In this document: piece by piece, positions 43,092 to 61,222 of the stretch
Position numbering within the stretch: the stretch's first letter is position 1
Layout of the letters: every line of letters begins with the position of its first letter
NCBI GenBank assembly: GCA_964651115.1
Contig: CAZYXJ010000001.1
Span: 213,077 to 277,076, forward strand
Direction: 5' to 3'
Source: an uncultured Candidatus Saccharibacteria bacterium
Lineage (GTDB): Bacteria > Patescibacteriota > Minisyncoccia > Phycocordibacterales > JACOZG01
Length of the DNA: 64,000 nucleotides
Program-made: the position numbers and the translations under genes
Notes under the pieces: generated by a model
Seen by the model: the letters and a program-made list of their open reading frames with translations, nothing else
Told to the model about the DNA's origin: nothing
Databases searched by the model: none

Positions 43092-43117
43092 GAGATTATT
43101 ATCCTACATTTTTTAAT

Positions 43118-43498
43118 TTATTTCTCCTCCGGCGAGAGATCCAGGCAGACGGAATTAAGGCAGTAGCGCCGACCCGTAGCTGTGGGGCCGTCATCAAAAA
43201 CGTGCCCGAGATGAGAACCACACTGCGCGCAAACAACTTCGGTCCTTTCTAAACCATGAGAACGATCAGAAACTTCCTTGACTGAACCAGGCATCGCCTG
43301 ATCAAAAGACGGCCAGCCAGTACCAGAGTCGAATTTGGCCTCGGAGTTAAACAGTTGGTTGCCGCAAACTTTGCAATTGTAAGTGCCCGTCCGCTCCTCG
43401 TGGAGCAGCTGGCCAGAAAAAGGCGGCTCCGTCCCCTTCTCCCTCAACACGCGATACTCCTCGGGAGTTAAACGTTTTTTGATTTCTTGTTCGTCCAT
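43118..43498 (-). CDS. msrB: peptide-methionine (R)-S-oxide reductase
   Basis: 126 aa; two CxxC zinc sites, GTGWPSF motif and catalytic RYCINS. Confidence 0.9.
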   Translation of the reverse strand: MDEQEIKKRLTPEEYRVLREKGTEPPFSGQLLHEERTGTYNCKVCGNQLFNSEAKFDSGTGWPSFDQAMPGSVKEVSDRSHGLERTEVVCAQCGSHLGHVFDDGPTATGRRYCLNSVCLDLSPEEK

Positions 43499-43566: not shown

Positions 43567-44301
43567 CTAAACTTTGCCTAAGAAAACTTTTTCCAAAACA
43601 CCACTGGCAATGAGCGTAGTCGGCTGCCCCTCGGCGACCAGTAAGCCCTTATCAAGCACGTAGGCTCGGTCAGTAATTTCTAAAAGTGATTTAAGATTGT
43701 GCTCAACTACCACCACGGCGATCTGGCGTTTCTGATTAATCTCTTTAATCGTGGCAAAAATTTCCTTCACGATCTTGGGAGCAAGTCCTAGTGATGGCTC
43801 ATCGAGAAGCAGAACCTTAGGGTCGGTGACCAAGCCGCGAGCGATCGCGAGCATTTGCTGCTGGCCCCCAGAGAGCGTCCCCGATTTGGCTTTGAGTTTG
43901 GTTTTAAGCGCCGGTAAAAGGTCGAGAACTTCCGCAATCTTCTCTCTAACTAGTTTTTTGTTCTTAATCACGATCCCGCCTAATTCCAAATTTTCCTGCA
44001 CCGTCAGATGACGGAAAACCCGGCGGCCCTGCGGTACAAAAGTGATCCCCCGCAACACCATCTCGTGCGAGACTGGGGTAACCGACTCTTCGTGCCAGTA
44101 GACTTTGCCCCGCTCGATAGGCGCCAGGCCAAAGAGGGCCTTTAGAACCGTCGACTTCCCCGCCCCGTTGGGCCCCATCAAGGCCACCACCTCACCCTCA
44201 TCAATTGCTAGCGAAACACCGTCAAGCGCCTTCACGCCACCATAGTGGACATGGAGATCCTCTAGTTTTAGCAATTTTTCTGTAGCAACAGCCGTGGGCA
44301 T
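43567..44301 (-). CDS. branched-chain amino acid ABC transporter ATP-binding protein (LivF-like)
   Basis: 244 aa; Walker A GPNGAGKST, ABC signature LSGGQQQ and Walker B LLLDEPS. Confidence 0.8.
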   Translation of the reverse strand: MPTAVATEKLLKLEDLHVHYGGVKALDGVSLAIDEGEVVALMGPNGAGKSTVLKALFGLAPIERGKVYWHEESVTPVSHEMVLRGITFVPQGRRVFRHLTVQENLELGGIVIKNKKLVREKIAEVLDLLPALKTKLKAKSGTLSGGQQQMLAIARGLVTDPKVLLLDEPSLGLAPKIVKEIFATIKEINQKRQIAVVVVEHNLKSLLEITDRAYVLDKGLLVAEGQPTTLIASGVLEKVFLGKV

Positions 44302-44307
44302 GGTTTA

Positions 44308-45327
44308 TTAATTACCAGTTAAGATCGTTGGCTGGCCACCTTTAATTTGCTTCATGATAATCGGGCGGGTGTAGATGCCGCTAGCGTTAAACTTGGCGCC
44401 TGAGAGAAGATTACTTTTGACACAGCTGTAATCACCCTTACACTCCGTAACAGCTTGGACCAAAACCTCGGTTGCTTGTTTGGAGAGTCCAAAAACCGCC
44501 CCCTCGCTACCCTCCAAATCGCCAGGGAACGAATAAATCACATCGGGTACTAACTCACGCACGGCCGGTAATTCCGCTACGTAAGTTGTATAGACCGGCA
44601 CCATCACTTTAAGTTGGCGGAGCTTGGGTACGCCGCTGCCAAAGAAGAAGGAGATATCAGGTGAGTAGATAGCGTCAACGCCAGCTTTGCTAATCTTTAA
44701 TACCTCCGGCGAGAGATCAACAGTCTCGTCGGTTAAAACAACGTCTTGAGCGATTGTGCCCTTAAAGTTTTTACGGAAGCTGTCGGCGTGAGTCTGAGAG
44801 AAGGCGTTTTTAAAGCTCACCAGCGCCACCTTGCGATGACCACGAGCAAACATTTGCTCAGCCACAAACTTCGACTCCTCTTGGAGAGAATACTGGATAT
44901 TGAAGAAGTTGTTGCCGCTAGCCGCATACAAATCTGAGGAAGCGGCGGCTGGTACAATGGACAGAACCTCCTTACCCTTTAAAAGCGGCACAACCGCCTC
45001 TTGAGGCGAGCCGCAGGCGGGACCAATGATGTATTTAGCTTTATCAAACTCCGCTAATTTTTGATAAGCAGTTACCGCCACCTTTGGGTCACATTGATCA
45101 TCCTCAAAAATCAAACTAACAGCCGTCGTACTCCCAACACCAGCCTGCACACCTCGGCGGACCTCCTCACCATAATCAGCCAGTGGACCAGTAAGCGGCG
45201 CGATTACTCCTATTTTGACAGGTTCGCTTGTGCCCACAGGGCCATCTTTTTTAACCGCCACGCCAATACCCCACACCACCAGAATAATGACAATGATCGC
45301 GATTATAATTTTTGCTGTGTTGGACAT
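44308..45327 (-). CDS. ABC transporter substrate-binding protein, type I PBP (Liv-like), paralog 1
   Basis: 339 aa; N-terminal TM anchor/signal; LivJ/K-AmiC-type periplasmic binding fold. Confidence 0.65.
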   Translation of the reverse strand: MSNTAKIIIAIIVIILVVWGIGVAVKKDGPVGTSEPVKIGVIAPLTGPLADYGEEVRRGVQAGVGSTTAVSLIFEDDQCDPKVAVTAYQKLAEFDKAKYIIGPACGSPQEAVVPLLKGKEVLSIVPAAASSDLYAASGNNFFNIQYSLQEESKFVAEQMFARGHRKVALVSFKNAFSQTHADSFRKNFKGTIAQDVVLTDETVDLSPEVLKISKAGVDAIYSPDISFFFGSGVPKLRQLKVMVPVYTTYVAELPAVRELVPDVIYSFPGDLEGSEGAVFGLSKQATEVLVQAVTECKGDYSCVKSNLLSGAKFNASGIYTRPIIMKQIKGGQPTILTGN

Positions 45328-45337
45328 GGTGTTTTTG

Positions 45338-46081
45338 CTATTCTCCTAAATATGCCTCAATTACTTCTGGCTTTTTTAAAACTTCTTCTGGTAAACCTTG
45401 GGCCAAGAGCTGGCCGGCGTCCATCACGATTAAGTGATCACACAACTCGCGGATTAAATCCATGTTGTGCTCGACTAAAATAATAGTTTTACCTGCCGCC
45501 CGGAGCTCTTTAATTACGCTCACCACTGTTTTAATCATCTCAGGAAAGAGTCCGGCAAATGGTTCATCAAGAAAAATGATGGAGGCCGCGTTGTCACTAG
45601 CCGAGACCATCGCGAGCACGCGCGCGATCTCCAAGAGCTTGCGCTGACCATAAGAGAGATTAGCGGCTAACTCCCCGCGCTTCTCCCACAGACCAACTTT
45701 TTTAAGGGCCGCCTCAGCCTGAGCCACATGAAAATCTTTGTGCTTCTCAAACAGTGAGGCAAAAGTGTTCCGCTCTGTTAGGACCACCAAGATGTTATCG
45801 AGCACCGGCATTTGCTCAAAGAGTCGTACGTCTTGGAAGGTGCGGGTTACGCCGTACTCGGCTGACTCATAAGCGCGCAAGCGCGAGAGCTCAACGCCAG
45901 AAATTACGATCGCCCCCGCCTCAAACGGGAACATGCCAGTGAGAGTATTGATAAGAGTCGATTTGCCCGAGCCGTTGGGACCGATCACGCCAGTGATCTT
46001 GCCGGCAGCAAATTCAACCGAGAGCCGGTCTACCGCCTTAACCCCGTCAAATTGTTTGGAGAGACCGTGGGTTTTAAGCAT
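45338..46081 (-). CDS. branched-chain amino acid ABC transporter ATP-binding protein (LivG-like)
   Basis: 247 aa; Walker A GPNGSGKST, ABC signature LSYGQRK and Walker B FLDEPF. Confidence 0.8.
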   Translation of the reverse strand: MLKTHGLSKQFDGVKAVDRLSVEFAAGKITGVIGPNGSGKSTLINTLTGMFPFEAGAIVISGVELSRLRAYESAEYGVTRTFQDVRLFEQMPVLDNILVVLTERNTFASLFEKHKDFHVAQAEAALKKVGLWEKRGELAANLSYGQRKLLEIARVLAMVSASDNAASIIFLDEPFAGLFPEMIKTVVSVIKELRAAGKTIILVEHNMDLIRELCDHLIVMDAGQLLAQGLPEEVLKKPEVIEAYLGE

Positions 46082-46120
46082 CGTAGCCTAATTAAATAGG
46101 ATGTTGCCCCGACCGTCAAA

Positions 46121-46846
46121 TTACCGTTTTGGTCTAATTGAATAGCAAACCCAGGTGTAACCCAGGGCATTATTGTAGCGCCTGCCGACAACCTCACAAC
46201 CACAATCGCTAACTAAGTTCTCCAGCACCACAAAATCAGCATTGGGATCTTTAGTATTTGCGCTTTGCAGGTTAGAGTGAGTTAAGAGTATGTAGCCGCC
46301 TGGATTAATATGGTCTCTGGCCTCCTCAAATAGTCTTCGGTGCAGGACCATCCCCGGATCATAGAGCGCTGCGGTGATGCTTGTTTTTTCTGTGGGGACA
46401 GCGTTCGTAATGGGCAGATTAGCAATTATCCGATCATATTTTTTATTCCCCATTGCTGAGAAGAGATCACTTACGAATACCGATATTGTGTCTTCTAGAC
46501 CATTTAGTTGAACATTATGTTTGCTGCAAGCTACCGCCTCCGGAATAAGATCCACAGCATCAACGTGTTTGGCCCCTTTAATAACTGCCGCAATTGATTC
46601 GACACCAGTACCGCAACCGATGTCAGCAACATCCAAACCGCTCAAATCACCAAGAGCTTCATATAATGTGCGAGAGGACACGGAGTGATCAGCGGCCGGC
46701 GGAAAAATGCCAGGGAAGACATCGATTAAGATAATTTTGCCATCGATTTCGACATTCACCCGATAAGTTCCTTGGGCTTTCTTGCGCTCCAGTTCTTTGA
46801 CCATTCCCTGGGTCTGCGGGGAATCAGCTTGTGGTTTGATTTCCAT
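46121..46846 (-). CDS. class I SAM-dependent methyltransferase (methyltransferase-small-domain type)
   Basis: 241 aa; motif I VADIGCGTGVESI; degenerate motif IV IANLPI where N5-Gln/N6-A amino-MTases have NPPY; 1-nt overlap with the upstream SBP gene stop. Confidence 0.6.
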   Translation of the reverse strand: MEIKPQADSPQTQGMVKELERKKAQGTYRVNVEIDGKIILIDVFPGIFPPAADHSVSSRTLYEALGDLSGLDVADIGCGTGVESIAAVIKGAKHVDAVDLIPEAVACSKHNVQLNGLEDTISVFVSDLFSAMGNKKYDRIIANLPITNAVPTEKTSITAALYDPGMVLHRRLFEEARDHINPGGYILLTHSNLQSANTKDPNADFVVLENLVSDCGCEVVGRRYNNALGYTWVCYSIRPKR

Positions 46847-48006
46847 TACTCAGCCTTCACGAATTTACCCTCACGAACAGTCTTCATTTCAAAGGCTTCG
46901 ACTGGAGTCTCAACAAAACCCTTGTCATCAAACTCAATGAGAGGAATAGATACACTGCCCTCAAACCTCACCTTCTCTAAACCTGATCGAACATTCTCTC
47001 GATTAATTTCTTGGCCAGACTCAACAAGGCCCTTCATCACCTCCGCCAGAACCAAAACTGCGTTGTAAGAGGTAACAGCCGATGGCGACAATGGCTTTAG
47101 ATTAAATCTAGCTTCGTACGCCTTCTCAAACTGATCATAACCATGAGACTGGCTTGGCGTTGCAAAATATAGACGGTTTTGCATCAGCTCTGGGCATTCG
47201 CTCAAAGCTTTTGGCGTTCCGGCAGACTCGGTGGAGAGAAGAGGTAAAGGCGCTCCAAGTTCCTTAGACTGAGCCAAAAAGACACATTCCAACTCGGCAA
47301 AAGCGCCAAAGAAGGCGTCTGGGGATTTGGCCTTAGCCTTGCTAATCAAAGTTCGATAATCAGTAACGGCATAGTCCGTACCCATTTCTTTAGCCACCAC
47401 AGTAATACCAAATTCTGGCGCATTTTTTTCAACCAAGTTAGCAGTAAAAAGCCAGAAGCTAAAGTTTGCTGGCTGGACAATGGCAATCTTTTTCCAGCCC
47501 TTATTTTGAGCAAACTTGAGTAATTCTCTAATCCCCACTTCGTTCTTGGGCCAAGTAACAAAGAAATAAGGTGAGTTAACTTTAGACTCAATGTAGGTTG
47601 AGACATTGGGGCTCACCACTGGAGTTTTGTCAGCTGAAGAGATGGCAGCCACTACCTCGCCGTTACCGTCCCACTGAGGACCAACAATAGCGACTACATT
47701 ATCAACTGCAATTAACTTCTTGGCCGCTGCCGCTCCGCGTTTAAGATCAAGACCAGGAGCGTCTTCTGAAACCATTTCTATTTTCTTGCCACCCACCCCA
47801 CCTTGAGCATTTACTTCTTCCACCGCTAGCAGAGCCCCGTTCTTTTCCTCTGCACCAATTTCAGCGCCTAAGCCAGATTGCCCAGACATCTGCCCGATCT
47901 TGATAACCTCCGCCGAGACTGAATTAGGATTTTTGCTCTTGCTCGCCCAAACTCCCAGCCCCACCACCACCAGAATTATGACGATCCAAATTATTGTTTT
48001 TTTCAT
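46846..48006 (-). CDS. ABC transporter substrate-binding protein, type I PBP (Liv-like), paralog 2
   Basis: 386 aa; N-terminus MKKTIIWIVIILVVVGLGVWA; Liv-type binding fold. Confidence 0.7.
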   Translation of the reverse strand: MKKTIIWIVIILVVVGLGVWASKSKNPNSVSAEVIKIGQMSGQSGLGAEIGAEEKNGALLAVEEVNAQGGVGGKKIEMVSEDAPGLDLKRGAAAAKKLIAVDNVVAIVGPQWDGNGEVVAAISSADKTPVVSPNVSTYIESKVNSPYFFVTWPKNEVGIRELLKFAQNKGWKKIAIVQPANFSFWLFTANLVEKNAPEFGITVVAKEMGTDYAVTDYRTLISKAKAKSPDAFFGAFAELECVFLAQSKELGAPLPLLSTESAGTPKALSECPELMQNRLYFATPSQSHGYDQFEKAYEARFNLKPLSPSAVTSYNAVLVLAEVMKGLVESGQEINRENVRSGLEKVRFEGSVSIPLIEFDDKGFVETPVEAFEMKTVREGKFVKAE

Positions 48007-48009
48007 AGT

Positions 48010-48732
48010 TTATTTAATTCCCACAACAACAGCTTCCATCATTTTGCGATAAACCGTTTCCACACCCTTAAAACCAATCGAAGTCATAAACGTTTTTGCC
48101 TCCCCTTCAAAAAACACCAGATCTTCTTGTTCGTCACGTTCCATGTGTGCAAGCCACTCTTTTTTGTAATCCGACCGACCAATGGTGTCGTAAATGTCAT
48201 ATTTGGCAATTTGTTCTCTATAAATCTCTTGTCGCTTTTCTGGATCATCATGGGCATACTTATCACCATTAACAAAAATGCCACCCGGCTTTAAGACCCT
48301 GAAGATTTCTGAAATTATCTGTCGACGAAAGTTTTGTTCAAAATTATGGATCACGAAACCAGAAGCTACGGCATCAAATGATGAGTCTGGTATATTCTTC
48401 AAATATTCTCCGACCTCACTTTCAATTACCGTCACCCGATTGGAAGCTTGCCAACGATTAAGATTATCCTGGATTTGATCAATCATTTTTTTCTCATTAT
48501 CAACAGCCACAACGCGTACACGAGAATCTGAGTCAAGTAGAAACTTGGTAGTAATCCCGGTCCCACATCCGACCTCCATAGTTACAATACTCCCCACCTG
48601 AGAATCCTTGAAGTGCTCGCGGATAGCTTGCCCAACCGCCTGCTGAAGTTCATCATAGTGCGGGTAAGCCAACTTCAAAAGCTCATACTCTTCGCCCAGG
48701 ATATTATTAAATCTTTGATCGTTAGAAGTCAT
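48010..48732 (-). CDS. class I SAM-dependent methyltransferase (UbiE/small-molecule type)
   Basis: 240 aa; motif I VGCGTGITTKFL; post-I acidic residue VDNE; motif LKPGG. Confidence 0.65.
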   Translation of the reverse strand: MTSNDQRFNNILGEEYELLKLAYPHYDELQQAVGQAIREHFKDSQVGSIVTMEVGCGTGITTKFLLDSDSRVRVVAVDNEKKMIDQIQDNLNRWQASNRVTVIESEVGEYLKNIPDSSFDAVASGFVIHNFEQNFRRQIISEIFRVLKPGGIFVNGDKYAHDDPEKRQEIYREQIAKYDIYDTIGRSDYKKEWLAHMERDEQEDLVFFEGEAKTFMTSIGFKGVETVYRKMMEAVVVGIK

Positions 48733-48737
48733 TTTAT

Positions 48738-49847
48738 TTATTTCAGAGGAATAATTCTATTTTTCTCAACTTTAAAGAACAGCACTGGTTTATGAGCATT
48801 GCCGTCATCATCAAAAGTCATCGTGCCAGATGCGCCAACAAACTCTTTAATATTACTGAGAGATTTAGCAACTAGCTCTGGATCAGTCGACCCGACATCG
48901 CTGATCGCCTTGATGTATAGGTTAAATGCATCATAAGCCTGATTAGCCGGAAAACCAACCTCTCGCTGATATTTAGATTGGAATTTTTTATTAAACGCAC
49001 TATCAACTGTATCAGTAGAAACAAAGATCGTTCCTTCCAAAGAACCTTGGGCTTGATCGATCGTAGGCTGAAACAACAATACAGAGAAAAATGGGATCGT
49101 CATCCCTAAATCTCGCAGCCGCTGGGCAGAAACGGCCGTTTGTCCATAATTAGTAAAAACAACGGCCTCTGGATTAGACGTTTTTATCTTCGTTGCTTCG
49201 GTTCGCAAATCTTTGTTGTCGACGGTAGGCAGTTGAATTGAGACTACGGCTCCACCAAGCTCTTCAAATTTTTTCTTTACAAAATTAGCCTGGTCCATCT
49301 CCCACTCTTGCTGAGAGCCAAATATAGCAATCTTTCGAAATCCTCTTTGCTTATAGAGATACTCGGCCAAGGTAAAACTATCAAATTTGTTAGGCGGAAA
49401 AACATCAAAAGTTCTTGGACTCATTTCAGCAAATTTTTCTGACCCGACTGACGGAGAAATAATTACTACGTTTGCCTTTTCTGCTACAGGAGCCAACACC
49501 GTCGCTGTGGGAGTGAAATCCGGACCAATTATCAAACGCACATCACGATTTATTAGGTTATAAAGCGCCGATAATCCACCTTTGGGATTATCGCCAAGAT
49601 TATCCTCATAAACCATTTCAACCGGTCGGCCCAATACGCCTCCAGCTTGATTAACTTCTCCAACAGCCAGATCAATACCTCGTTTGGCATTCTCACCGGT
49701 ATCAGCAAAGTTACCGGTTAAATTGAGGATTGCGCCAATCTTAATTGGGCCATCAGTATTATTTGACATCTGCCCATCACGATAAAACCACGCCCCCAAC
49801 CCAACCAGCACTAGAATTATGACAACCCAAATAACGATTTTTTTCAT
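48738..49847 (-). CDS. ABC transporter substrate-binding protein, type I PBP (Liv-like), paralog 3
   Basis: 369 aa; N-terminus MKKIVIWVVIILVLVGLGAW. Confidence 0.7.
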   Translation of the reverse strand: MKKIVIWVVIILVLVGLGAWFYRDGQMSNNTDGPIKIGAILNLTGNFADTGENAKRGIDLAVGEVNQAGGVLGRPVEMVYEDNLGDNPKGGLSALYNLINRDVRLIIGPDFTPTATVLAPVAEKANVVIISPSVGSEKFAEMSPRTFDVFPPNKFDSFTLAEYLYKQRGFRKIAIFGSQQEWEMDQANFVKKKFEELGGAVVSIQLPTVDNKDLRTEATKIKTSNPEAVVFTNYGQTAVSAQRLRDLGMTIPFFSVLLFQPTIDQAQGSLEGTIFVSTDTVDSAFNKKFQSKYQREVGFPANQAYDAFNLYIKAISDVGSTDPELVAKSLSNIKEFVGASGTMTFDDDGNAHKPVLFFKVEKNRIIPLK

Positions 49848-49850
49848 ATT

Positions 49851-50930
49851 TTATTCTAGATCTGTTAGCTGACCACCTTTTACCGCCATAATTTTAGTTT
49901 CTGGCTTGCGATTACCGGTGCCGTCAAACTCGATCTTGCCGCCCACACCCGCAAAGTTTGCAGCCTTAAGATTTTTGACCCAAGTGGCCTGATTAGCGTC
50001 ATAGGTTGCGACCAGCAAATTAAACGCATCGTAGCCGATATCAGACAAAAAGCCAGGATCAGCATTAAAGCGAGCTTTGTACTTAGCTTTAAACTCATCG
50101 GCCACGTCCGACTTTACCGTTCCGACAATCGTGCCATCAAGAACCTTCATATCACCCAAGATACGCTGGTAATCAGAGAAGCCAGATTGGAAGTTGGTGT
50201 CAAAAAAGAATTGCGGATTATTTTTCTTAATCTTCAAAAATTCTTGCATAAAGCGAGCGCCCTGCTGCGGCACAATAAAGAGACCGATCGTACTGGAGTT
50301 GCTAGCGGCCACCTTTAAAGCGTGGGGTCGGAGATCCTTTTCGTCAGCCTGGATAACAAAATCAGTAGTTGTACCCTGGAAGCCTTGTTTAAAACTTTCT
50401 ACAAAGCGGACCATGGCATCAATATTGCTGTAGACAATCGCCATCTCTTTAACACCCTTCTCTCTCATATACACTCCGTACTCATACTCAGAAGCGATAC
50501 TGTTGGGCAAAATACCAAGCACGTTATCATCAGCCGGCTCTCGTCCCTGCTCGCCCATTTGGATAACCGGTAGATCGGTTGTCGTTACCGCACCATAAAT
50601 CGCATCGATCGTCGGCGTAGAAACATTGATCAGCGCCTGGATCTGATTGCTCGTAATCAATTTTTGATAAGCACTGAGTCCCTTGCCACCATTAAAGCCA
50701 TCATCCTCCATAAAAACATTTATCTTAGCATCAGGATGCGCTTGATTATATTCCTCACTAGCCAAAACAACGCCGTTGCGGATGTTCTCGCCGACGGCCG
50801 CGTAATCTCCGCTAAGAATGGCGATGAGTCCTAGATTAAAACTTTTAGCTTGCTGATTGTTGCCAGACCAAACAACCGCCCCGATCACAATAATGGCAAT
50901 GATAACTACCCAAATAATTATTTTTTTCAT
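49851..50930 (-). CDS. ABC transporter substrate-binding protein, type I PBP (Liv-like), paralog 4
   Basis: 359 aa; N-terminus MKKIIIWVVIIAIIVIGAVVW. Confidence 0.65.
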   Translation of the reverse strand: MKKIIIWVVIIAIIVIGAVVWSGNNQQAKSFNLGLIAILSGDYAAVGENIRNGVVLASEEYNQAHPDAKINVFMEDDGFNGGKGLSAYQKLITSNQIQALINVSTPTIDAIYGAVTTTDLPVIQMGEQGREPADDNVLGILPNSIASEYEYGVYMREKGVKEMAIVYSNIDAMVRFVESFKQGFQGTTTDFVIQADEKDLRPHALKVAASNSSTIGLFIVPQQGARFMQEFLKIKKNNPQFFFDTNFQSGFSDYQRILGDMKVLDGTIVGTVKSDVADEFKAKYKARFNADPGFLSDIGYDAFNLLVATYDANQATWVKNLKAANFAGVGGKIEFDGTGNRKPETKIMAVKGGQLTDLE

Positions 50931-50935
50931 ATTGG

Positions 50936-52057: not shown

Positions 52058-52123
52058 GACTCTAGTCTAGCAAGCTCGGGTGAACTGTAAAGCAAAAGTT
52101 GACTATACTGGTTTTATTGCCCG

Positions 52124-53239: not shown

Positions 53240-53378
53240 AATAGCATTATACAGATGAGCTATTTTATTGTATATAGATGAGGCTCGGTTGGACCGTTTC
53301 TCAAAAATATGCTTATTTATAGCGCTGGAACGGTTTTTATAATTTGACTAAAAATTAGTCACAAGCTATACTCAGCTG

Positions 53379-54203
53379 ATGGGTAACAGCAACGCCATCT
53401 ATAACCTAATGGGCCTCACCGAGACCGAAAAGCGGATTCTGCGGGCACTCCAGTCAGCAAAAAACGTGCAAAACATTGCCCGCCAGACGGGTATCTCTCG
53501 AACGGGAATAAATTATTGTCTCAGTTCCCTACTTAAACGTAGTCTCGTGCGCATTATCCGTCAGGGCCGCAAAAGATTATTCATTGGCCTGACTAAGCTA
53601 GAACTTGTTAATTTGCTGCAAGAGGCCATCGACGGATCAAAAATCGAAGGGGCGGAAAAGAGGGGCGCGAGAGTCCGGTCCACCAAAGAGGACGAATTTG
53701 TTATCCATGTGGGAGCCAAAGAGATTATCCCCGCCTACACCCGCATCGCCTCCGCGAACAAAGATGAGCGCATTAAAGCCATCCAACACCATCGCTCTTA
53801 CAATGAACTATTAGAAAAAATCACCGCTACCCAGTTGGTTGCCTTCAATAAAACCATCATTAAAAATCGCCTCATTATCGAGGGGATGCTGAACGAAGGA
53901 GCTTATCAAGCCTACAAAGAAGAAGTTGGAACAAACCCGAACAAGTATAAGGACTCTATCGAAAGCCTAGAAGGACGGATGGCGGATTACACCTGCTTTC
54001 CCGACAATAAGTTTAACCATGATGCCGAGCTGTGGCTATTTAAAAATACTTCGCTTTTGATTAATTGGCACGATGAGGTGGCGATAGAAATTACTAACAA
54101 AAGTATGACCGCCTTTCTGAAAGATATGTTTGACTTCGTTAAAAAAGACGGCCACAAGATCGACCATAACCGAGCCGTGAGAAATGTTTTAACAAAAAAT
54201 TGA
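53379..54203 (+). CDS. putative winged-helix transcriptional regulator (TrmB-like N-terminus)
   Basis: 274 aa; N-terminal HTH-like region (ETEKRILRALQSAKNVQNIARQTGISRTGINYCLSSLLKRSL); inserted on the plus strand inside the minus-strand transporter cluster. Confidence 0.45.
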   Translation: MGNSNAIYNLMGLTETEKRILRALQSAKNVQNIARQTGISRTGINYCLSSLLKRSLVRIIRQGRKRLFIGLTKLELVNLLQEAIDGSKIEGAEKRGARVRSTKEDEFVIHVGAKEIIPAYTRIASANKDERIKAIQHHRSYNELLEKITATQLVAFNKTIIKNRLIIEGMLNEGAYQAYKEEVGTNPNKYKDSIESLEGRMADYTCFPDNKFNHDAELWLFKNTSLLINWHDEVAIEITNKSMTAFLKDMFDFVKKDGHKIDHNRAVRNVLTKN

Positions 54204-54212
54204 TCTGGGGAT

Positions 54213-55091
54213 TTAAATCTTATACTCCCCGATCAGGCCTTGAGGGCGGTAGAGCATAAGGACGATTAGCAAGAGGCCATAGACGGCTTGGCGCATTTGC
54301 GCCGCAATATCGGTGGGAAAGCCCACAAAACGCAAGGCCTCAGGCAACAGGATCAAACAAACCGCCCCCAAAACTGAGCCGCGGAGATTGGCCAGTCCGC
54401 CGAGAATAATAATCGCCAGCAAAAAGATCGACTCATTAAGCGAGAAAGTGGAAGGATCAATAAAGGTGATATAAGAAGCAAAAAGTGAGCCTGCTAGTGC
54501 CGCCAATCCAGCACTAATTACAAAGATCAGAAGTTTGTAATTAAAGGTGTGATAACCAAACACCCGGATCGCCTCCTCGTCCTCACGAATCGCCTTTAAA
54601 ACTCGGCCAAACGAGGATTTAACAATCAAACGTGATACAAGGTAAACCAAAGCAAGCGCTACGGCGGTTAAAACCAGAAACTCAAGGTTTGAGTTAAGGT
54701 CCAATTTCCAATTACCAATTCCTAAGGAGGGGCGAGTAATCCCGGGGACACCCAAGGGGCCGCGAGTTACTGATTGCCAGTTGAGAAAGATACTATAAAT
54801 GATGATGTTGAAGCCAAAGGAGCCGAGAGCGTAAAAGTCTTCGCGGAAGCGCGAGAGCACCACGCCCACTACCACCGAGACCAACATCGCGATAATCATC
54901 CCGATCAAAGTTGCCAAGAAAAAGTTCAACCCCATTCCTGTTAGCAGCAGCGCTGTGGCGTAAGCGCCAATGCCATAAAAGGCGGCTTGAGTGATGGAAA
55001 GGAGACCAGTGTAGCCAACGATCAGATTTAAGCTGATCCCCAAGATCCCGTAGATACCGATCAGAATGGCTAAGTGGATTAAATATTCCAT
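54213..55091 (-). CDS. branched-chain amino acid ABC transporter permease (LivM-like)
   Basis: 292 aa; multi-TM; LivM/LivH permease family pattern. Confidence 0.8.
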   Translation of the reverse strand: MEYLIHLAILIGIYGILGISLNLIVGYTGLLSITQAAFYGIGAYATALLLTGMGLNFFLATLIGMIIAMLVSVVVGVVLSRFREDFYALGSFGFNIIIYSIFLNWQSVTRGPLGVPGITRPSLGIGNWKLDLNSNLEFLVLTAVALALVYLVSRLIVKSSFGRVLKAIREDEEAIRVFGYHTFNYKLLIFVISAGLAALAGSLFASYITFIDPSTFSLNESIFLLAIIILGGLANLRGSVLGAVCLILLPEALRFVGFPTDIAAQMRQAVYGLLLIVLMLYRPQGLIGEYKI

Positions 55092-55093
55092 GG

Positions 55094-55972
55094 CTACTTT
55101 TTAAATAGACCCTGCGGGCGAAATAAAAGAAACAGAAGCAGGAGCACGAAGGCGATCGCATCCTTCCACTCCCCGGCCAACTTCCAAATCCCAAAATTTT
55201 CTACAAAGCCCAAAATAAAAGCCCCGATGATCCCACCCCAAATATTACCGGCGCCACCAATAATCGCCGCGATCACTCCTTTTAGGAGGAGTGATAACCC
55301 CATCGTTGGCTCGATACCGGTATCAAAGCCGATCATGATCCCCGCCAACCCAGCAATGGCCGAGCCGAGAAAGAAAACGGTGGCAATCACATTGCTGGTA
55401 TTGATCCCCACGATTTTAGAAACCTCTTCATCATCGCCCACGGCCCGGATGGCTTTACCGATCGCCGTGTATTTAAGAAAGAGTCCCAGCAGCACGCCGA
55501 TCACCAGGACCAGGGCCACAATAATAAGCTGGACCTGAGTGATTACGCCGCCGGCAATCTCGTAGACCTGACCGCTGCCGGCGGCGCGACTTAGGGTCTG
55601 GAACTGACTAGTAAAGAGCATGGCGATAATCGCCTGGAGCATGGTAAAGGCACCCAGGGAGGCAACTAGCAAAACCATGTTGGAAGCTTTGCGCTTCCGA
55701 AGCGGTCGATAAACTAGATAGTTAATCAAAAGCCCGATCAAACCAGCCACCAAGACGCCCAAAACCACCGCCCACCATAAGTCGCCACCAAGTTTTTTAT
55801 AAAAAAAGAAAACGGTATAACCACCCACTGCCGTGAGAGCACCATAACCAAGATCAAAAAACTTGACCGTACCAAAGATTAAATTAAAACCGAGCGCCAA
55901 GAGAGCATAGATGGCGCCAGCAATAATGCTATTAGCAACAAGTTGTGGCAAGATATCCATATATATTTTCAA
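55094..55972 (-). CDS. branched-chain amino acid ABC transporter permease (LivH-like)
   Basis: 292 aa; multi-TM; 3-nt gap to the LivM-like gene. Confidence 0.8.
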   Translation of the reverse strand: MKIYMDILPQLVANSIIAGAIYALLALGFNLIFGTVKFFDLGYGALTAVGGYTVFFFYKKLGGDLWWAVVLGVLVAGLIGLLINYLVYRPLRKRKASNMVLLVASLGAFTMLQAIIAMLFTSQFQTLSRAAGSGQVYEIAGGVITQVQLIIVALVLVIGVLLGLFLKYTAIGKAIRAVGDDEEVSKIVGINTSNVIATVFFLGSAIAGLAGIMIGFDTGIEPTMGLSLLLKGVIAAIIGGAGNIWGGIIGAFILGFVENFGIWKLAGEWKDAIAFVLLLLFLLFRPQGLFKK

Positions 55973-56028
55973 CCAAACTATAACAGCAACCTGAGCTGAC
56001 TACAAATCAGGTCCGGAATAAAACAAGC

Positions 56029-57135
56029 CTACTCTGCCATTCTCACAAACTTACCATCCTGGATAGATTTAAAGTAAAACTCTCTTTGAATGGTGTTCTG
56101 GTCAAAAGACATGACCCCACTTACTCCTTGGTAATTATTTAGTTGTAAAATGTAATCTCTGACACAAGACGAATTATTTTTGCCACAACTCTCAAGGGCA
56201 TCAATCAATATTTTGTATATATCGTAAGCATTGTAAGCCGCCACTTGAGGCCGTCCGCTGGTTACCTTTTGAAATTCGCTGATAAACTTTTGCTGAGCAC
56301 TAGTAAGAGAGCTCTCGTTAATTGGGAAAGTGTAAACCAATCCCTCCAAGCTACTACCTCCAGCCGCCACCAAATCAGACGCCTCTGTCGCGTATTGACC
56401 AAACAGAGGTACATCTATTCCTAATTCTCTGGCCTGTTTAGCAATTTGCCCGACTCCAGCCCCATTGTAGACAATATATAGAGCATCCGGGGCGGCCTTT
56501 TTGAGTTTAAGCAGGCTGGTTCGAAAATCCTGCGACCCAACAAGGAAAGGCTCGGCCCCAACCAAAACTCCACCACGTTTTTCTGTTTCCTCTTTGAACG
56601 ATCGGTAATGAAGGAGACCAAAATCATTGTTCATATAGATAATGGCCGGTTTTTGTTTTTTAAGTTTGGTGACAATTAATTCCGCCAACACTCGTGCCTC
56701 ACTGTCTGCTTCATGGGAGCCCTTGATCACATATCCCTCGATCTTATTGGCCGCACCCCAGGGTGTGAAGGCGACGATTTGGTTTTGGCTGGCTAGAGGT
56801 TTTACCGCTTCTATTCCGGAACTATTTAGCGGACCCACAATGGCGTCGACACCATCTACCGTCACTAATTTATTGAAGGCTGATACCGCTTTTTCTGAAG
56901 TAAATCCATCATCTTCGTAGACAAGTTCAACCTTTTCGCCATAATCTTTATTGGCGATCTCCAAGGCTGCCCTGATATCCTCTCCTACCTTAGCCTGAGC
57001 CCCCGTTAAAGGAATAACCACACCAATCTTAATCGGCTCGCCCCTCACCGGGCTCGCCTCGTCTCTCCTGCTCGCCCACACTCCTAACCCCATCACTACC
57101 AGAATTATGACGATCCAAATTATTACCTTTTTCAT
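56029..57135 (-). CDS. ABC transporter substrate-binding protein, type I PBP (Liv-like), paralog 7
   Basis: 368 aa; N-terminus MKKVIIWIVIILVVMGLGVWA. Confidence 0.7.
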   Translation of the reverse strand: MKKVIIWIVIILVVMGLGVWASRRDEASPVRGEPIKIGVVIPLTGAQAKVGEDIRAALEIANKDYGEKVELVYEDDGFTSEKAVSAFNKLVTVDGVDAIVGPLNSSGIEAVKPLASQNQIVAFTPWGAANKIEGYVIKGSHEADSEARVLAELIVTKLKKQKPAIIYMNNDFGLLHYRSFKEETEKRGGVLVGAEPFLVGSQDFRTSLLKLKKAAPDALYIVYNGAGVGQIAKQARELGIDVPLFGQYATEASDLVAAGGSSLEGLVYTFPINESSLTSAQQKFISEFQKVTSGRPQVAAYNAYDIYKILIDALESCGKNNSSCVRDYILQLNNYQGVSGVMSFDQNTIQREFYFKSIQDGKFVRMAE

Positions 57136-57137
57136 AT

Positions 57138-57893
57138 CTAATTATTTAATATAAGCTCGTGCATGTAAATCATCCCTCTTTGGAGGTTGTTGATTGAATT
57201 GTGTAACCAGGTCGTTTGTACCTCATAACCAAGCTTTTCCCCAACAATTCTGGGATCAGTTAAGTCACCACCCAAACTGTAGGAAGGAATCGCAATCACA
57301 CCCTGAGGGTTAAGGTGCTCTTTCGCTTCAACCAGAAATCTCTCAAACAGCTCGGGCAGCATGAGCATGCTGGCAGAAATGGTATCACCTTCTGGAGACT
57401 TACCAGCAAAAAACGGGATCATCCAAGTTATTAGATCCGCTTTTTCGTCGATCTTTTCAAATAAGTCACCCTGGACGACAGAAGCAATCGCCTCAACATT
57501 AAATCTTTTTATATTCTCCTGCGTATTTTCCACAGCCGGAAGGGAAACATCAGACATAACGACTTTCTTGGCTCCATACTTGGCCATTATTACTCCCATT
57601 AGCCCAGTACCTGATCCTATTTCAATTGCAGTTTTATTAAAAAAGAGAGCATTGTGATAAAAAAGATAACGAGCGTGATAACGACCCGAAGCAATTAGAG
57701 GATTCCACACCCCCTTTTTGATCAGAAAGTTTTTCAGAGTGTCGTCCTCCCCGCTTACGTCGTAGTTTACTTCAAAATCTTCGTGTTGGTGTTTTTCCCA
57801 TTGGGTCAAAACCAGATTTCTCTGGTCTTGATTTAGCATCTTTAAGTTATCCTCTTGGAGAGTCGCTTCCCGCTTATCCATATGCCTTTTCAA
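57138..57893 (-). CDS. class I SAM-dependent methyltransferase (methyltransferase-small-domain type; paralog of 46121-46846)
   Basis: 251 aa; motif I IEIGSGTGLMGVIMA; degenerate motif IV MIPFF; 2-nt gap to the downstream SBP gene. Confidence 0.6.
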   Translation of the reverse strand: MKRHMDKREATLQEDNLKMLNQDQRNLVLTQWEKHQHEDFEVNYDVSGEDDTLKNFLIKKGVWNPLIASGRYHARYLFYHNALFFNKTAIEIGSGTGLMGVIMAKYGAKKVVMSDVSLPAVENTQENIKRFNVEAIASVVQGDLFEKIDEKADLITWMIPFFAGKSPEGDTISASMLMLPELFERFLVEAKEHLNPQGVIAIPSYSLGGDLTDPRIVGEKLGYEVQTTWLHNSINNLQRGMIYMHELILNN

Positions 57894-57932
57894 CCAAACT
57901 ATACCTTATTCCTTGTATTGTTTCCAACGGTA

Positions 57933-59054
57933 TTAACGTAGTGATTTATAGCCGCCAGGTATACCATCTTTAGACAACACGATCTGCCACAGTTGGATAC
58001 TGCGAGCCCGAAAAGCTCCCGCACAGGCTAGCAAATAATAACGCCACATCCGTCGGAAGCGCTCAGAGTAATTTTGCTTGATCTGATCCCAACTGCGCTC
58101 AAAGTTTTGCTGCCAGGCCATTAGAGTCTTATCGTAATCAGAACCAAAATTGTGCCAATCTTCCATCACAAACAGGCCCTCAATCCCTCGGGCCATTTGG
58201 GCGACACTTGGCAAAACACCGTTAGGAAAAATGTACTTATCGATCCAAGGATCCGTTACCCTTGAGCCCACACTTTTACCGATCGTGTGGAGCAAAAAGA
58301 GTCCGCCATCTTTTAAGCAACGGCGGGCCACCTCAAAATAGCTGCGATAATTTTTATCACCCACATGCTCAAACATCCCCAACGACACAATCGCATCAAA
58401 CTGGCCGGTTAGATCACGATAGTCTTGCAATAAAATCTCGACCGGCAAACCCTGACACAACTCCATCCCAAGAGCCACCTGCTCCTTAGAAACAGTGACA
58501 CCAGTAACCCGCACCCCGTAACGCTCGGCCGCAAACTTGGCAAAGCTGCCCCAACCACAACCAATATCCAAAACGTGCATCCCGGGTTTAAGATTAAGCT
58601 TTTGGCAAACCAAATCTAATTTGGCCTCCTGCGCCTCATCGAGTGAGTTCGCCTGGCGCCAATAAGCACAAGTGTAGACCAAGCGTCGATCCAACATTTG
58701 GCGGTAAAGATCGTTGCCGGCATCGTAATGCTCCTCGCCCACCATAAAAGCCCGAGACTTTGATTGGCGGTTAAAAAGAGTGTTTATTAGATAAGAAAGG
58801 GCGAGTTGCCAACCCCCTCGAACTTGCTGGTGGAGTTTGGCGCGAAATATTTTATCGAAAAATTGATCCAGCTCCTGGGCGTCCCACCAACCATCCATAT
58901 AACTCTCTCCTAAAGCCAAGGAACCGCCGGCCAAAACCCGAGCGTAAAAACGTTCATCGTGGATCTGGATATCCCCCGGCGCGGCACCATTAATGGTAAC
59001 GCCAGCCTTGGCAAGCAGGTCAGTAATCAGCCGTTTAGCGGTTATAGTTGACAT
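57933..59054 (-). CDS. cyclopropane-fatty-acyl-phospholipid synthase family SAM-dependent methyltransferase
   Basis: 373 aa; CFA-synthase / mycolic acid cyclopropane synthase family pattern (VLDIGCGWGSFAKFAAERYGVRVTGVTVSKEQ). Confidence 0.75.
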   Translation of the reverse strand: MSTITAKRLITDLLAKAGVTINGAAPGDIQIHDERFYARVLAGGSLALGESYMDGWWDAQELDQFFDKIFRAKLHQQVRGGWQLALSYLINTLFNRQSKSRAFMVGEEHYDAGNDLYRQMLDRRLVYTCAYWRQANSLDEAQEAKLDLVCQKLNLKPGMHVLDIGCGWGSFAKFAAERYGVRVTGVTVSKEQVALGMELCQGLPVEILLQDYRDLTGQFDAIVSLGMFEHVGDKNYRSYFEVARRCLKDGGLFLLHTIGKSVGSRVTDPWIDKYIFPNGVLPSVAQMARGIEGLFVMEDWHNFGSDYDKTLMAWQQNFERSWDQIKQNYSERFRRMWRYYLLACAGAFRARSIQLWQIVLSKDGIPGGYKSLR

Positions 59055-59133
59055 CGTTTTAAACTATCATGAAGTTTTTCCAAACGCCAACCACCCGCCT
59101 CTCGGCGGGTGGTTGGGAATAAACCTTAATTTT

Positions 59134-60252
59134 TTACTGACTGATCGTCACCGGCTTGCCGTCTTTAATCATGCGCACTACGGCCTTAGAATTTACAACG
59201 CCATTATCATCTATTGTTAGGTCCTTACCAAGAGCACCATCAAACTTAGGAATATCGGCGATTGCATCACGGATCTCACTTCTGCTGGGCTTAACTTCTC
59301 CGTTGCCCGCAGACTCTGTGGCCATAACAATCAGGTTAAGAACATCGTAGGCGTTAGCAGCGCCAAACTTTGGTCCTTGGTCATAGCGTTTAGTATATAA
59401 GTCAACAAACCATTGAGTTGGATCAGCGCCATTGACGTACCACATCCCCTCAAACAGTGACAACTGATCAGAAAACTCAAAAGCTTCCATCGTTGTTACC
59501 GGTGTCGTGATTCCGGCCTCACGCATTTGTTTGGCAAGAATTTCCAATTCGGGCGTGGTTGCCTCAAGAACATAGATGTCGGCACCCGAGATTTTAAAAC
59601 CCTTATCGATAAGGGTTTTAAAATCTCGGGTGCCAGTGTTAAACTTCTGAGTCGAAAGCACTTGGATATTAGTATTTTTTATATCCTTCTCGAAGCTGTT
59701 AATGATTGCTGCTACCCCTTGGTTATCTTGCTGCGCAAAAAAGACAAGCTTTTTTATGCCTCTTTTTTGTAACTCTTGAATAAAGAGCCGCGAATCCTCA
59801 TACGGTGGTGTGTAGTGAACAAAGTTATACTCACCGTCAGCCACCTGAGAAGCCGAAGCAAAGTCATTAATATGAGGCACTCCATTTTTCTCGGCAATCG
59901 GACTAATCACACTGCCCACCGGCGACCCAAAAGATACCAAAACGTCTGCCTTATCAATGGCGATAAGCTTGTTCGCCACGGTCGCACCCAGAGCTGGCTT
60001 AAACTGATCGTCTTCAAAGATAAGTTTGTAGTTATATTTGAGATTTTTTGGCAATCCCTCCTGTGCCAAGGTAATTGCGTTTTTGGCACTTTGGCCAAGC
60101 ATGGCTACGTCTCCGGTCAACGGCAAACTAACGCCAACGATAACTGTTGGTCTCATCGCCTCTGGGACTTGAGAATCTTGCCTGGTCAAAACCAGGCCTA
60201 TCAGGACGATGATGACAAGACCAATAATGGTCCAAATTATTTTTTTATTCAT
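59134..60252 (-). CDS. ABC transporter substrate-binding protein, type I PBP (Liv-like), paralog 8
   Basis: 372 aa; N-terminus MNKKIIWTIIGLVIIVLIGLV. Confidence 0.7.
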   Translation of the reverse strand: MNKKIIWTIIGLVIIVLIGLVLTRQDSQVPEAMRPTVIVGVSLPLTGDVAMLGQSAKNAITLAQEGLPKNLKYNYKLIFEDDQFKPALGATVANKLIAIDKADVLVSFGSPVGSVISPIAEKNGVPHINDFASASQVADGEYNFVHYTPPYEDSRLFIQELQKRGIKKLVFFAQQDNQGVAAIINSFEKDIKNTNIQVLSTQKFNTGTRDFKTLIDKGFKISGADIYVLEATTPELEILAKQMREAGITTPVTTMEAFEFSDQLSLFEGMWYVNGADPTQWFVDLYTKRYDQGPKFGAANAYDVLNLIVMATESAGNGEVKPSRSEIRDAIADIPKFDGALGKDLTIDDNGVVNSKAVVRMIKDGKPVTISQ

Positions 60253-60421
60253 ATATGATTATAAATATATCTTATATCCACTCAAGCATAAACTAGATTT
60301 TTCTCTTGTCATTAATAATTATCTAATTGCCACAGGAAATATGGCCTTAACTAAAGGTTTTTTAACTTATTAATTTTTTTGTTCGTTAAAAGTGACAAAT
60401 GTTTAAATACGTGTTAGAGTT

Positions 60422-61222
60422 ATGGTTATGATAAATAGCCAAGTAACTAACCAGTTAAAGGACACTGGTCTAAGCGAGAAAGCAGCCTTAGTTTATACCA
60501 CCTTACTTAAACTTGGTGGGGCCTACCCTTCTAGCCTCGCAGCCGCCACCAAGCTTAACCGTAGTACCGTTTATAAACTTCTCCTAGATCTATCAATAAA
60601 AGGATTGGTCACCGAGGTTGAACGAGGCAAAAAACTTTACTACCAAGCTGAAAAACCTGAAAAATTACTTAGGTTTGCAAAAAATCAAGCCGATTTAGCC
60701 AAAGGGGCTTACGACCAGATTCGACAACTAATACCAGAGCTCGAAACGATTTTTGCTTCCAATCCCAACAAACCGGTAATCCGCTACTTCCAAGACAAGG
60801 CCGGCATTGCTTCTATCTACGAAGAAATGGTATCTGAAAAAAAATATGAAATGGTCTCTTTTTCCCACGGAGAAGCTTTTAAGAATTACCTGCCCACTGC
60901 GGCACTAAGGAAATTTGTGCGCGCAAAAGAGCGCAATGGCATCACCACCCGAGCGATTGCTCCAGACACGGAGGAAAACCGAAAATATACCACTGCCGTT
61001 TTTGAGGGTATCAAGAAAGACTTCTGGCTAGAGATCCGTTATGTTCCTAACGAATTTTTTCCTTTCGAGGCGGAAATTACGCTTTATGGAAACTCGAAGC
61101 TGGCGCTAACAAAACTGCGCGGCGACAAGTTAATCGGTGTTGTTATCGACGAAAAATTGATTCATGACATGTTCAAAATGATTTTTGAACTAGTCTGGCG
61201 CTCAGATCAAGTTAAGAAATAA
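60422..61222 (+). CDS. TrmB-family transcriptional regulator
   Basis: 266 aa; N-terminal TrmB-type wHTH (LSEKAALVYTTLLKLGGAYPSSLAAATKLNRSTVYKLLLDLSIKGLV); divergent from the SBP cluster. Confidence 0.6.
   Translation: MVMINSQVTNQLKDTGLSEKAALVYTTLLKLGGAYPSSLAAATKLNRSTVYKLLLDLSIKGLVTEVERGKKLYYQAEKPEKLLRFAKNQADLAKGAYDQIRQLIPELETIFASNPNKPVIRYFQDKAGIASIYEEMVSEKKYEMVSFSHGEAFKNYLPTAALRKFVRAKERNGITTRAIAPDTEENRKYTTAVFEGIKKDFWLEIRYVPNEFFPFEAEITLYGNSKLALTKLRGDKLIGVVIDEKLIHDMFKMIFELVWRSDQVKK

Follow-up and report, generated by a model that had tools for sequence, protein, structure and literature searches.

Why would an importer locus of the Liv type carry four methyltransferase genes among the genes of its binding proteins? 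The question is raised by positions 43567 to 61222 of a 64,000-nucleotide stretch of DNA from an uncultured Candidatus Saccharibacteria bacterium (contig CAZYXJ010000001.1). This whole stretch is called the window, and coordinates refer to it unless a locus number is given. We name the substrate-binding proteins SBP1 to SBP8, the small methyltransferases MT1 to MT3, the fourth methyltransferase Cfa and the two regulators Reg1 and Reg2; numbers with the prefix L denote the homologue loci used for comparison. We consider it fairly probable that an ultra-small and host-dependent, Paceibacterota-like bacterium of the candidate phyla radiation (CPR) has here its main locus for importing amino-acid-type nutrients, in which a single translocon of the hydrophobic amino acid uptake transporter (HAAT) family is served by eight receptors and one of the methyltransferases, MT2, is linked to import. 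The part worth following is the association of MT2 with importers, which is common to CPR bacteria and DPANN archaea.

The components identify a HAAT (Liv-type) importer. There are two permeases with BPD_transp_2 domains (PF02653), one of the LivH type (55094 to 55972, E = 2e-46) and a short one of the LivM type (292 amino acids, 54213 to 55091, E = 4e-47), two ATPases matching PF00005, and receptors of the Peripla_BP_6 family (PF13458). The LivG-type ATPase (45338 to 46081) has an ABC_tran domain and a BCA_ABC_TP_C tail, and the LivF-type ATPase (43567 to 44301; ABC_tran, E = 4e-35) is 30% identical to it. The sequence-only reading had described a single LivH/LivM pair and a single LivG/LivF pair, eight binding-protein genes, three class-I S-adenosylmethionine (SAM)-dependent methyltransferases with one enzyme of the CFA-synthase family, and two winged-helix regulators on the opposite strand. 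Pfam agreed on every count: all eight binding proteins scored above the gathering score, both regulators matched the TrmB family, and the architecture departs from the standard Liv layout as first described. Hidden Markov models built from the window's own proteins revealed no further permease or ATPase copies elsewhere in the 64 kb. The regulator genes lie on the + strand and all other genes of the locus on the − strand, in two divergent regulator/operon units. Operon A, divergent from Reg2, has the transcription order SBP8-Cfa-MT3-SBP7-LivH-LivM, and operon B, divergent from Reg1, the order SBP6-SBP5-SBP4-SBP3-MT2-SBP2-MT1-LivG-SBP1-LivF; co-transcription within each is predicted from gene spacing and consensus promoter matches. 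Since the permease genes are confined to operon A and the ATPase genes to operon B, a working transporter would need both.

Among the four methyltransferases, MT2 (48010 to 48732; Pfam Methyltransf_11/25) is the one whose pairing with a binding protein, here SBP3 (48738 to 49847; PF13458, E = 2e-57), is kept in other genomes. In two further species (L007/L008 and L009/L010/L013), orthologues of SBP3 (66% identical) and MT2 (65%) are neighbours, SBP3 coming first and MT2 following after 2 nt. In L007 and L009 the pair lies some 9 kb away from LivH/M, flanked by xth and a xerC-like integrase gene; in L011 (1597-3435) xerC and xth are directly adjacent, so that SBP3-MT2 behaves as a mobile two-gene module. 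A further methyltransferase of 220 amino acids accompanies the pair between the xerC-like gene and xth, which is exonuclease III-like (L007, 7933-12699; L009, 7961-13173). Together, SBP3, MT2 and the extra methyltransferase look like a cassette inserted beside an integrase gene. A more distant version, an SBP3-type protein (32% identical) followed by MT2 (41%), occurs in L036.

The association extends to importers of another kind. At six loci (L176, L177, L018, L020, L027 and L032), MT2 stands at the start or the end of an operon of SBP_bac_3, BPD_transp_1 and ATPase genes, which belong to the polar amino acid uptake transporter (PAAT) family, unrelated to Liv. The MT2 proteins of L176 and L177 are 54 to 57% identical to ours, and the importer families of the other four loci were confirmed by Pfam. 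At L042, an ABC ATPase gene is directly upstream of MT2 and the contig ends there. We compared 32 nonredundant CPR/DPANN loci with 51 loci from methanotrophs and other bacteria. An ABC importer gene was present within 300 nt of MT2 in 10 of the 32 CPR/DPANN loci and in 2 of the 51 others (Fisher test; P = 9e-4), a TrmB-like gene within 400 nt in 9 and none, respectively, and either of them was adjacent to MT2 in 17 and 2 (P = 3e-7). Importer genes were also denser close to MT2 (0.179 per kb) than in the distal flanks (0.057 per kb; P = 0.003). HAAT-linked and PAAT-linked MT2 genes are interleaved inside the window's own clade of a rough neighbour-joining tree. The transporter family is thus swapped while MT2 stays, a classical signature of a functional link, and the association spans both importer families and both Bacteria and Archaea.

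What MT2 might do is suggested by its relatives. Its profile matches in the PDB are 3dtn (MM_2633, E = 1.6e-19), CysG (2e-19) and CmoA (5e-14), and the best Foldseek matches of its AlphaFold2 (AF2) model (pLDDT 93) are the same MM_2633, CysG/BelI and CmoA proteins, with TM scores of 0.72 to 0.83. It fell short of the CmoA equivalog model TIGR00740 (46.7 bits against a cut-off of 193), with a fold similarity to CmoA at TM 0.76 to 0.80. By sequence and modelled fold, MT2 is classed as a small-molecule SAM enzyme related to CysG/BelI and CmoA. The characterised members of this subgroup all act on small molecules, with alpha-hydroxy or alpha-keto carboxylates as co-substrates. CysG and BelI are Ca2+-dependent carboxyl O-methyltransferases of 3-alkylmalates, and the metal ligands of CysG are His122, His123 and Asp191, with Tyr18 as a gate and Arg22 binding the carboxylate (PMC11408123). 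The family-invariant residues His129-Asn130 of MT2 align with His122-His123, the second histidine being replaced by asparagine; a His-to-Asn variant of CysG, which is the best PDB sequence match of MT2, was reported active by its authors (PMC11408123). Tyr16 and Lys20 of MT2 align with the gate tyrosine and with Arg22, and the N-terminal cap, with its tyrosine gate and a basic residue, appears to be kept in MT2. The two enzyme types differ in context, since CysG/BelI belong to a beta-lactone biosynthetic cluster and MT2 sits in transporter operons of ultra-small prokaryotes.

In the mechanism that we propose, the translocon would import a range of amino-acid-like solutes, with a separate tethered receptor for each. 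Through SBP3 it would receive an alpha-amino, alpha-hydroxy or alpha-keto carboxylate, and MT2 would methylate this solute, or a direct product such as its keto or hydroxy acid, at a site that binds carboxylates with the help of a metal. Speculatively, MT2 could follow CysG/BelI and methylate a carboxyl oxygen, or follow SgvM, which ranks lower among its Foldseek matches, and methylate a carbon of an alpha-keto acid. MT2 carries no signal sequence or membrane segment, which places it in the cytoplasm. This location bears on a different role, in which MT2 would regulate transport by methylating a binding protein, the permease or the ATPase instead of the solute. Such a role would account for MT2 adjoining whole importer operons of whatever family, but the binding proteins are extracytoplasmic, and the fold, the capped active site and the closest relatives of MT2 are those of small-molecule enzymes. 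We regard it as highly improbable.

Solute methylation would have a functional counterpart in the mmuP-mmuM genes of Escherichia coli, which encode an S-methylmethionine permease and a homocysteine S-methyltransferase. In both cases the gene for uptake shares its operon with that of an enzyme for methyl transfer, which in E. coli uses the imported compound. The likeness is one of function only; the E. coli proteins, an APC permease and a TIM-barrel methyltransferase that depends on Zn, come from unrelated families, and no homology is claimed. Azetidine-carboxylate synthases of the AzeJ type, which include a CPR clade (PMC11794875), were also considered as an identity for MT1 to MT3 and rejected, since AzeJ and VioH were absent from their PDB sequence and fold matches.

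Scavenged metabolites sustain both CPR bacteria and DPANN archaea, whose small enzymes mostly lack annotation. A family of SAM enzymes that is repeatedly associated with importers of amino acids offers a concrete way into this metabolism. We would extend the proposal, tentatively, to an "import-and-modify" module of these ultra-small symbionts, in which a CysG/CmoA-like, probably metal-dependent enzyme of the MT2 family would be expressed together with amino-acid ABC importers under TrmB-like regulators. The enzyme would methylate an imported amino, hydroxy or keto acid, and the module would have been exchanged between importer families and between domains. Such a module, which we think possible but would not presume, could turn scavenged host metabolites into compounds that the cell cannot make, or could trap or detoxify them.

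Several points weigh against this reading of the locus. The loci were found through MT2 itself, and the background rate of importer genes was estimated from the distal flanks only. No importer is adjacent in 22 of the 32 CPR/DPANN loci, and methanotrophs have kept the family as well, there with housekeeping neighbours that carry little information. Clustering and scanning of these neighbours (DUF1244, IspA/YciB, PPIase, YCII, RadA-like and M48 protease genes) gave no functional clue. MT2 is accordingly not strictly dependent on an adjacent transporter. These genomes are very rich in TrmB-like regulators (L011 has five within 20 kb), and accessory genes may simply gather in variable, TrmB-rich regions. 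The identity between MT2 and CysG is just about 22% (about 20 to 22% across the subgroup), and the third metal ligand of CysG is unmapped in MT2, the alignment stopping before Asp191. Consensus promoter matches, on which the predicted co-transcription and regulation partly rest, are barely above chance in the region (38 against 26.9 ± 4.9 expected). The functional statements all rest on sequence, fold and neighbourhood.

Tight spacing of genes is also common in the genome, and this bears on the coupling of binding-protein and methyltransferase genes emphasised in the sequence-only reading. The junctions that it gave are exact: genes overlap by 1 nt at 46846 and are separated by 3 nt at 48006/48010 and by 2 nt at 57135/57138. 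Such closeness is weak evidence, because short gaps are common here: 11 of the 35 same-strand junctions outside the cluster are also of 10 nt or less, and the unrelated neighbours at 38885-43498 are spaced 2 to 17 nt apart. With about 91% of the window coding and 54 of its 70 genes on one strand, the four methyltransferases could be unrelated passengers in a long same-strand run, none of them acting on imported solutes. Their membership of four different families would fit such coincidental accretion, as would the absence of binding-protein neighbours from the MT1 homologues in all contexts examined and from the MT3 homologues at 70 to 73% identity, and a composition of the binding-protein and methyltransferase genes that differs from that of the transporter core. 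MT2 itself argues the other way, since it adjoins two unrelated importer families in three gene orders, in Bacteria and Archaea, and since the SBP3-MT2 pair moved as a unit to another genomic site in L007 and L009. We therefore hold wholesale accretion to be rather unlikely and keep to an import-linked MT2.

For the other three enzymes the outcome differs. A single system that methylates related substrates of one family, as first suggested, does not agree with four unrelated families of different histories. Coupling of methylation to uptake is upheld for MT2, weakly for MT3 and not for MT1, and Cfa is an ordinary enzyme. Likewise, the related clusters of L007 and L009 lack MT1, MT3 and Cfa, the pattern expected of coincidental insertion, but not MT2. 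Profile classification, which the same reading had called for, identified Cfa, placed MT2 near CysG/BelI and CmoA, and left MT1 and MT3 as orphans resembling HemK2 and PrmA.

MT1 (46121 to 46846; Pfam MTS 4e-17, PrmA 2e-15), which overlaps the stop codon of SBP2 by 1 nt, and MT3 (57138 to 57893; Pfam MTS 8e-13) are distant paralogues with 25% identity. MT3 has 251 amino acids when read from a TTG start; the product on record has 233, from a start at 57839. The best homologues of MT1, MT2 and MT3 come from metagenome-assembled genomes of Paceibacterota/Patescibacteria and DPANN, and it is by these named sources that the organism was assigned to CPR. Homologue searches found the MT1 and MT3 families confined to CPR and DPANN. 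The solved protein closest to MT1 is MJ0882 (E = 4e-18), and the best Foldseek matches of the MT3 model (AF2, pLDDT 92.7) are TrmM, Asc-Orf2 and N6AMT1/KMT9. Taken together, the nearest solved relatives of the two are MJ0882, PrmA, PRMTs, TrmM/TrmN6, N6AMT1/KMT9 and the carbamoyl N-methyltransferase Asc-Orf2. From these matches, MT1 and MT3 are best described as predicted N-methyltransferases.

Such relatives raise a serious rival for these two enzymes, namely that they are housekeeping methyltransferases of translation, acting on a release factor, a ribosomal protein, an elongation factor or tRNA/rRNA, and are merely located in the operons. Some contexts are suggestive: the MT1 homologue of L004/L005 is directly upstream of a release-factor gene (PCRF/RF-1), and the closest MT3 homologue (82% identical, in L175) comes after rpsL-rpsG-fusA. 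The sequence and fold neighbours HemK/HemK2, PrmA, RsmC, TrmN6 and METTL5 point the same way, as does the very strong conservation of MT3. Both proteins nevertheless score below every NCBIfam cut-off for PrmC, PrmA, PrmB and RsmC. For PrmC/HemK (TIGR03534, cut-off 199) the scores are 54.8 bits for MT1 and 36.7 bits for MT3, and for PrmA (TIGR00406, cut-off 183) they are 54 and 35 bits, with an alignment that covers only the Rossmann core (profile positions 161-234 of 296). Where glutamine methyltransferases have NPPY as motif IV, MT1 has NLPI (ANLPI) and MT3 has MIPF (WMIPFF), and neither protein has the N-terminal substrate-recognition domains of PrmA and PrmC. The contexts vary (Vut_1, TerC, TrmB) with no fixed housekeeping synteny, and the fold neighbours also include the small-molecule N-methyltransferases Asc-Orf2 and GenN. 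On balance a translation role seems possible but doubtful, and MT1 and MT3 were probably accreted as passengers or serve as accessory genes under separate regulation.

Adjacency to a binding-protein gene, proposed as a point to survey in related genomes, was never seen for MT1 in the homologue contexts examined and was kept for MT3 in a single close relative, L175, where the MT3 orthologue is followed by an SBP7 orthologue (76%). The MT3 homologues of L173 and L174 (70-73% identical), L093 and L094 have no binding-protein neighbour; in L093, L094 and L174, a TrmB-like gene lies upstream on the opposite strand. A metagenome scan with the MT3 alignment returned at least three to four true orthologues among the 80 loci listed, the rest being generic methyltransferases. 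MT3 homologues are 50 to 85% identical between CPR bacteria and DPANN archaea, with a mean column identity of 70%. This unusually high identity between domains suggests recent exchange or strong constraint. On the Uhrbacteria contig of L174, a bAvd gene lies beside a reverse-transcriptase gene (RVT_1) at 2350-3813, about 4 kb from the MT3 homologue, a combination that is the signature of a diversity-generating retroelement. The MT1 homologues, for their part, abut a transporter gene of the Vut_1 (YhhQ-like) family in a Paceibacterota genome (L001-L003, 9300-10738) and in a Woesearchaeota genome (L006, 9164-11367), where a TrmB-like gene is divergent as well. Here, then, is another pairing of a methyltransferase with a transporter that both domains have in common.

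The fourth enzyme, encoded at 57933-59054 and of the CMAS/CFA family, passes the NCBIfam equivalog model NF008686 (627 bits against a cut-off of 400) and is, on this evidence, a genuine cyclopropane-fatty-acyl-phospholipid synthase for which cyclopropanation is predicted. It matches the E. coli enzyme (6bqc, E = 1e-145) with about 60% identity over 362 residues (6bqc 19-379), a full-length match that includes the N-terminal domain and keeps the YxCAYW, GMFEHVG and LLHTIG motifs. Unlike its E. coli counterpart, the gene lies inside an ABC importer operon of a CPR-type bacterium, and it was probably acquired horizontally from a proteobacterium-like donor. The lineage is not known to have de novo lipid synthesis. 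Cfa would cyclopropanate membrane phospholipids and be co-expressed with the importer, which implies remodelling of scavenged phospholipids; the locus would thus show a CPR-type bacterium using a proteobacterial-type cyclopropane synthase for lipid remodelling.

The sequence-only reading had offered, as an alternative, modification of the envelope by the methyltransferases and Cfa in step with nutrient scavenging. The position of a phospholipid cyclopropane synthase in operon A, between SBP8 and MT3, speaks for such a programme. It can apply to Cfa alone, since MT1, MT2 and MT3 have neither membrane segments nor a lipid-binding domain like the N-terminal domain of Cfa, and the substrates of their relatives are proteins, RNA or soluble small molecules. 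In addition, Cfa is absent from the related clusters in L004, L007, L009 and L175. A concerted envelope programme is very unlikely, and we retain solute import as the context of MT2.

The eight binding proteins had been described as tandemly amplified with near-identical anchors. Pairwise BLASTP identities are just 22 to 33%, and a few pairs had no match at E ≤ 1e-3, which does not agree with recent tandem amplification. From this divergence we take them to be old diverged paralogues or separately acquired genes. Each of them presumably delivers a different solute. Besides SBP3, operon B encodes SBP1 (44308 to 45327, 339 amino acids, E = 4e-30 to PF13458), SBP2 (46846 to 48006, 6e-44), SBP4 (49851 to 50930, 9e-27), SBP5 (50936 to 52057, 2e-51) and, as its first gene, SBP6 (52124 to 53239, 5e-24); operon A encodes SBP7 (56029 to 57135, 1e-52), paired with MT3, and, as its first gene, SBP8 (59134 to 60252, 2e-37). 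SBP4 is divergent and a paralogue of SBP6 (33% identical). The C-terminal half of SBP1 has diverged, its PF13458 match spanning profile positions 1-195 only, and the protein is 26% identical to SBP7 over 358 columns. The locus shows how such genomes widen their substrate range, with many diverged receptors and accessory modules on a single translocon.

The N-terminal anchors are alike in part. The IIW[IV]VI motif is present in SBP2, SBP3, SBP4, SBP5 and SBP7, whereas SBP1, SBP6 and SBP8 differ, and the only near-identical pair is that of SBP2 and SBP7 (20 of 22 residues). None of the eight proteins has a cysteine in its first 40 residues, so the N termini are membrane-anchoring helices rather than lipoprotein signals. 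Over their first 66 nt, the genes of SBP2 (47941-48006) and SBP7 (57070-57135) are 88% identical (82% at third codon positions), and the proteins are just 27% identical overall. The likeness begins at the ATG, with no upstream extension, and orthologues of SBP3 and SBP7 elsewhere bear different anchors. These 5' ends suggest homogenisation within the genome (gene conversion) or strong selection on the anchor helix.

As for the substrates, the solved proteins closest to SBP3 are the amino-acid-binding HAAT proteins 3td9 and 4n0q, and SBP7 matches E. coli LivJ (1z15) over its full length at 5e-18. Specificity for branched-chain amino acids would call for orthology to LivJ/K and LivHMGF, and the NCBIfam scores do not reach it: all transporter components are far below the cut-offs of the Liv and Urt equivalog models, including the LivG-type ATPase (186 bits to LivG/UrtD), the LivM-type permease (LivM/UrtC) and the LivH-type permease (UrtB/LivH), and SBP4 and SBP6 have no NCBIfam match at all. 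The substrates are therefore not transferable from E. coli.

The locus is predicted to be regulated by Reg1 and Reg2. Reg1 (53379 to 54203, + strand, 274 amino acids) scores 27.1 bits (E = 3.9e-6) and Reg2 (60422 to 61222, + strand, 266 amino acids) 44.8 bits (1.2e-11) against the TrmB cut-off of 25.6 (PF01978). They are too different from each other for a BLASTP match. Reg2 aligns to the TrmB structure 3qph over residues 6-103 only, the C-terminal part of Reg1 (about 180 amino acids) has no family match, and Pfam and NCBIfam detected no TrmB C-terminal sugar-binding domain in either protein, with no match beyond about residue 100. The TrmB protein of Thermococcales represses an adjacent trehalose/maltose ABC transporter operon. 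Reg1 and Reg2 resemble it in their winged-helix N terminus and in being divergent from an adjoining ABC importer operon, and differ in having no detected sugar-binding C-terminal domain and in their bacterial host. The same unit, a TrmB-like gene divergent from a binding-protein gene, is found in L004, L009, L011, L014 and L036.

Reg1 is convergent with LivM and divergent from SBP6, from which it is separated by a control region of 139 nt (53240 to 53378); the spacer between Reg2 and SBP8 measures 169 nt. Promoter-like sites point outward in both spacers, those on the − strand being at 53274-53246 for SBP6 and 60285-60258 for SBP8. The Reg1 spacer contains direct repeats of TATAYAGATGAG at 53248-53259 and 53271-53282, 23 bp apart, and a perfect 7-3-7 palindrome, TGACTAAAAATTAGTCA, at 53345-53361, which overlaps the promoter-like −35 element of Reg1. 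Exact copies of both elements were found in this spacer only when the 64 kb were searched, and a copy of TATAYAGATGAG with one mismatch lies at 22643-22654. The repeats and the palindrome are thus candidate operators. An operator common to both divergent control regions was looked for and rejected: only AT-rich 8-mers are common to the two, the repeats and the palindrome being specific to the Reg1 side.

The base composition of the locus fits a native core with later-accreted accessory genes. The GC content at third codon positions (GC3) is 0.57 to 0.58 in the transporter core (0.58 in the LivF-type gene), close to that of the genome (0.579 ± 0.093 for 48 other genes), and lower in the binding-protein genes (0.36 to 0.52) and in MT1 to MT3 (0.39 to 0.44), SBP3 and MT2 being the lowest two. 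A large serine recombinase gene (Resolvase/Recombinase/Zn_ribbon_recom) lies in L004 at 17302-18627, directly beside genes for a LivH/M-type permease, a TrmB-like protein and a binding protein, a hint of mobility of the Liv modules of this lineage.

Sharing of one translocon by several binding proteins is already known, for example from LivJ and LivK of E. coli, which work with LivHMGF in the HAAT family (Transporter Classification 3.A.1.4); the rhizobial Bra system is another multireceptor HAAT importer. The present locus shares with E. coli Liv its BPD_transp_2 permeases, LivG/LivF-type ATPases and Peripla_BP_6 receptors and the use of one translocon by several of the latter. It differs in the number of receptors, eight against two, in their attachment by N-terminal helices, where those of E. 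coli are free in the periplasm, in the split of permease and ATPase genes over two operons, and in its TrmB-type regulators and four embedded methyltransferase genes. In the literature that could be searched we found neither an account of methyltransferases embedded in Liv-type receptor arrays nor one of an MT2 family linked to importers, and nothing relevant linking Patescibacteria or DPANN with Liv-type binding-protein arrays, TrmB or cyclopropane synthase.

The 18-kb cluster is flanked by two genes on the − strand, msrB (SelR, E = 9e-50; 43118-43498) and msrA (PMSR, E = 7e-65; 61506-62045). The genes msrA and msrB are often neighbours, and the cluster may have grown or inserted between them. 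A fifth class-I methyltransferase gene (39692-40459, Methyltransf_11) lies just upstream, between two SIMPL/DUF541 genes, and is followed by DUF1761 and TspO/MBR genes (region 38885-43091); a DUF1761 gene is also near the MT1 homologue in the Woesearchaeota locus L006. Farther away in the window, a low-GC stretch at 16000-20000 (GC 0.42 to 0.46; GC3 0.34 to 0.44 for the genes at 16131-18409) is unlike its surroundings and is adjoined by an open reading frame of 1124 amino acids at 18759-22133.

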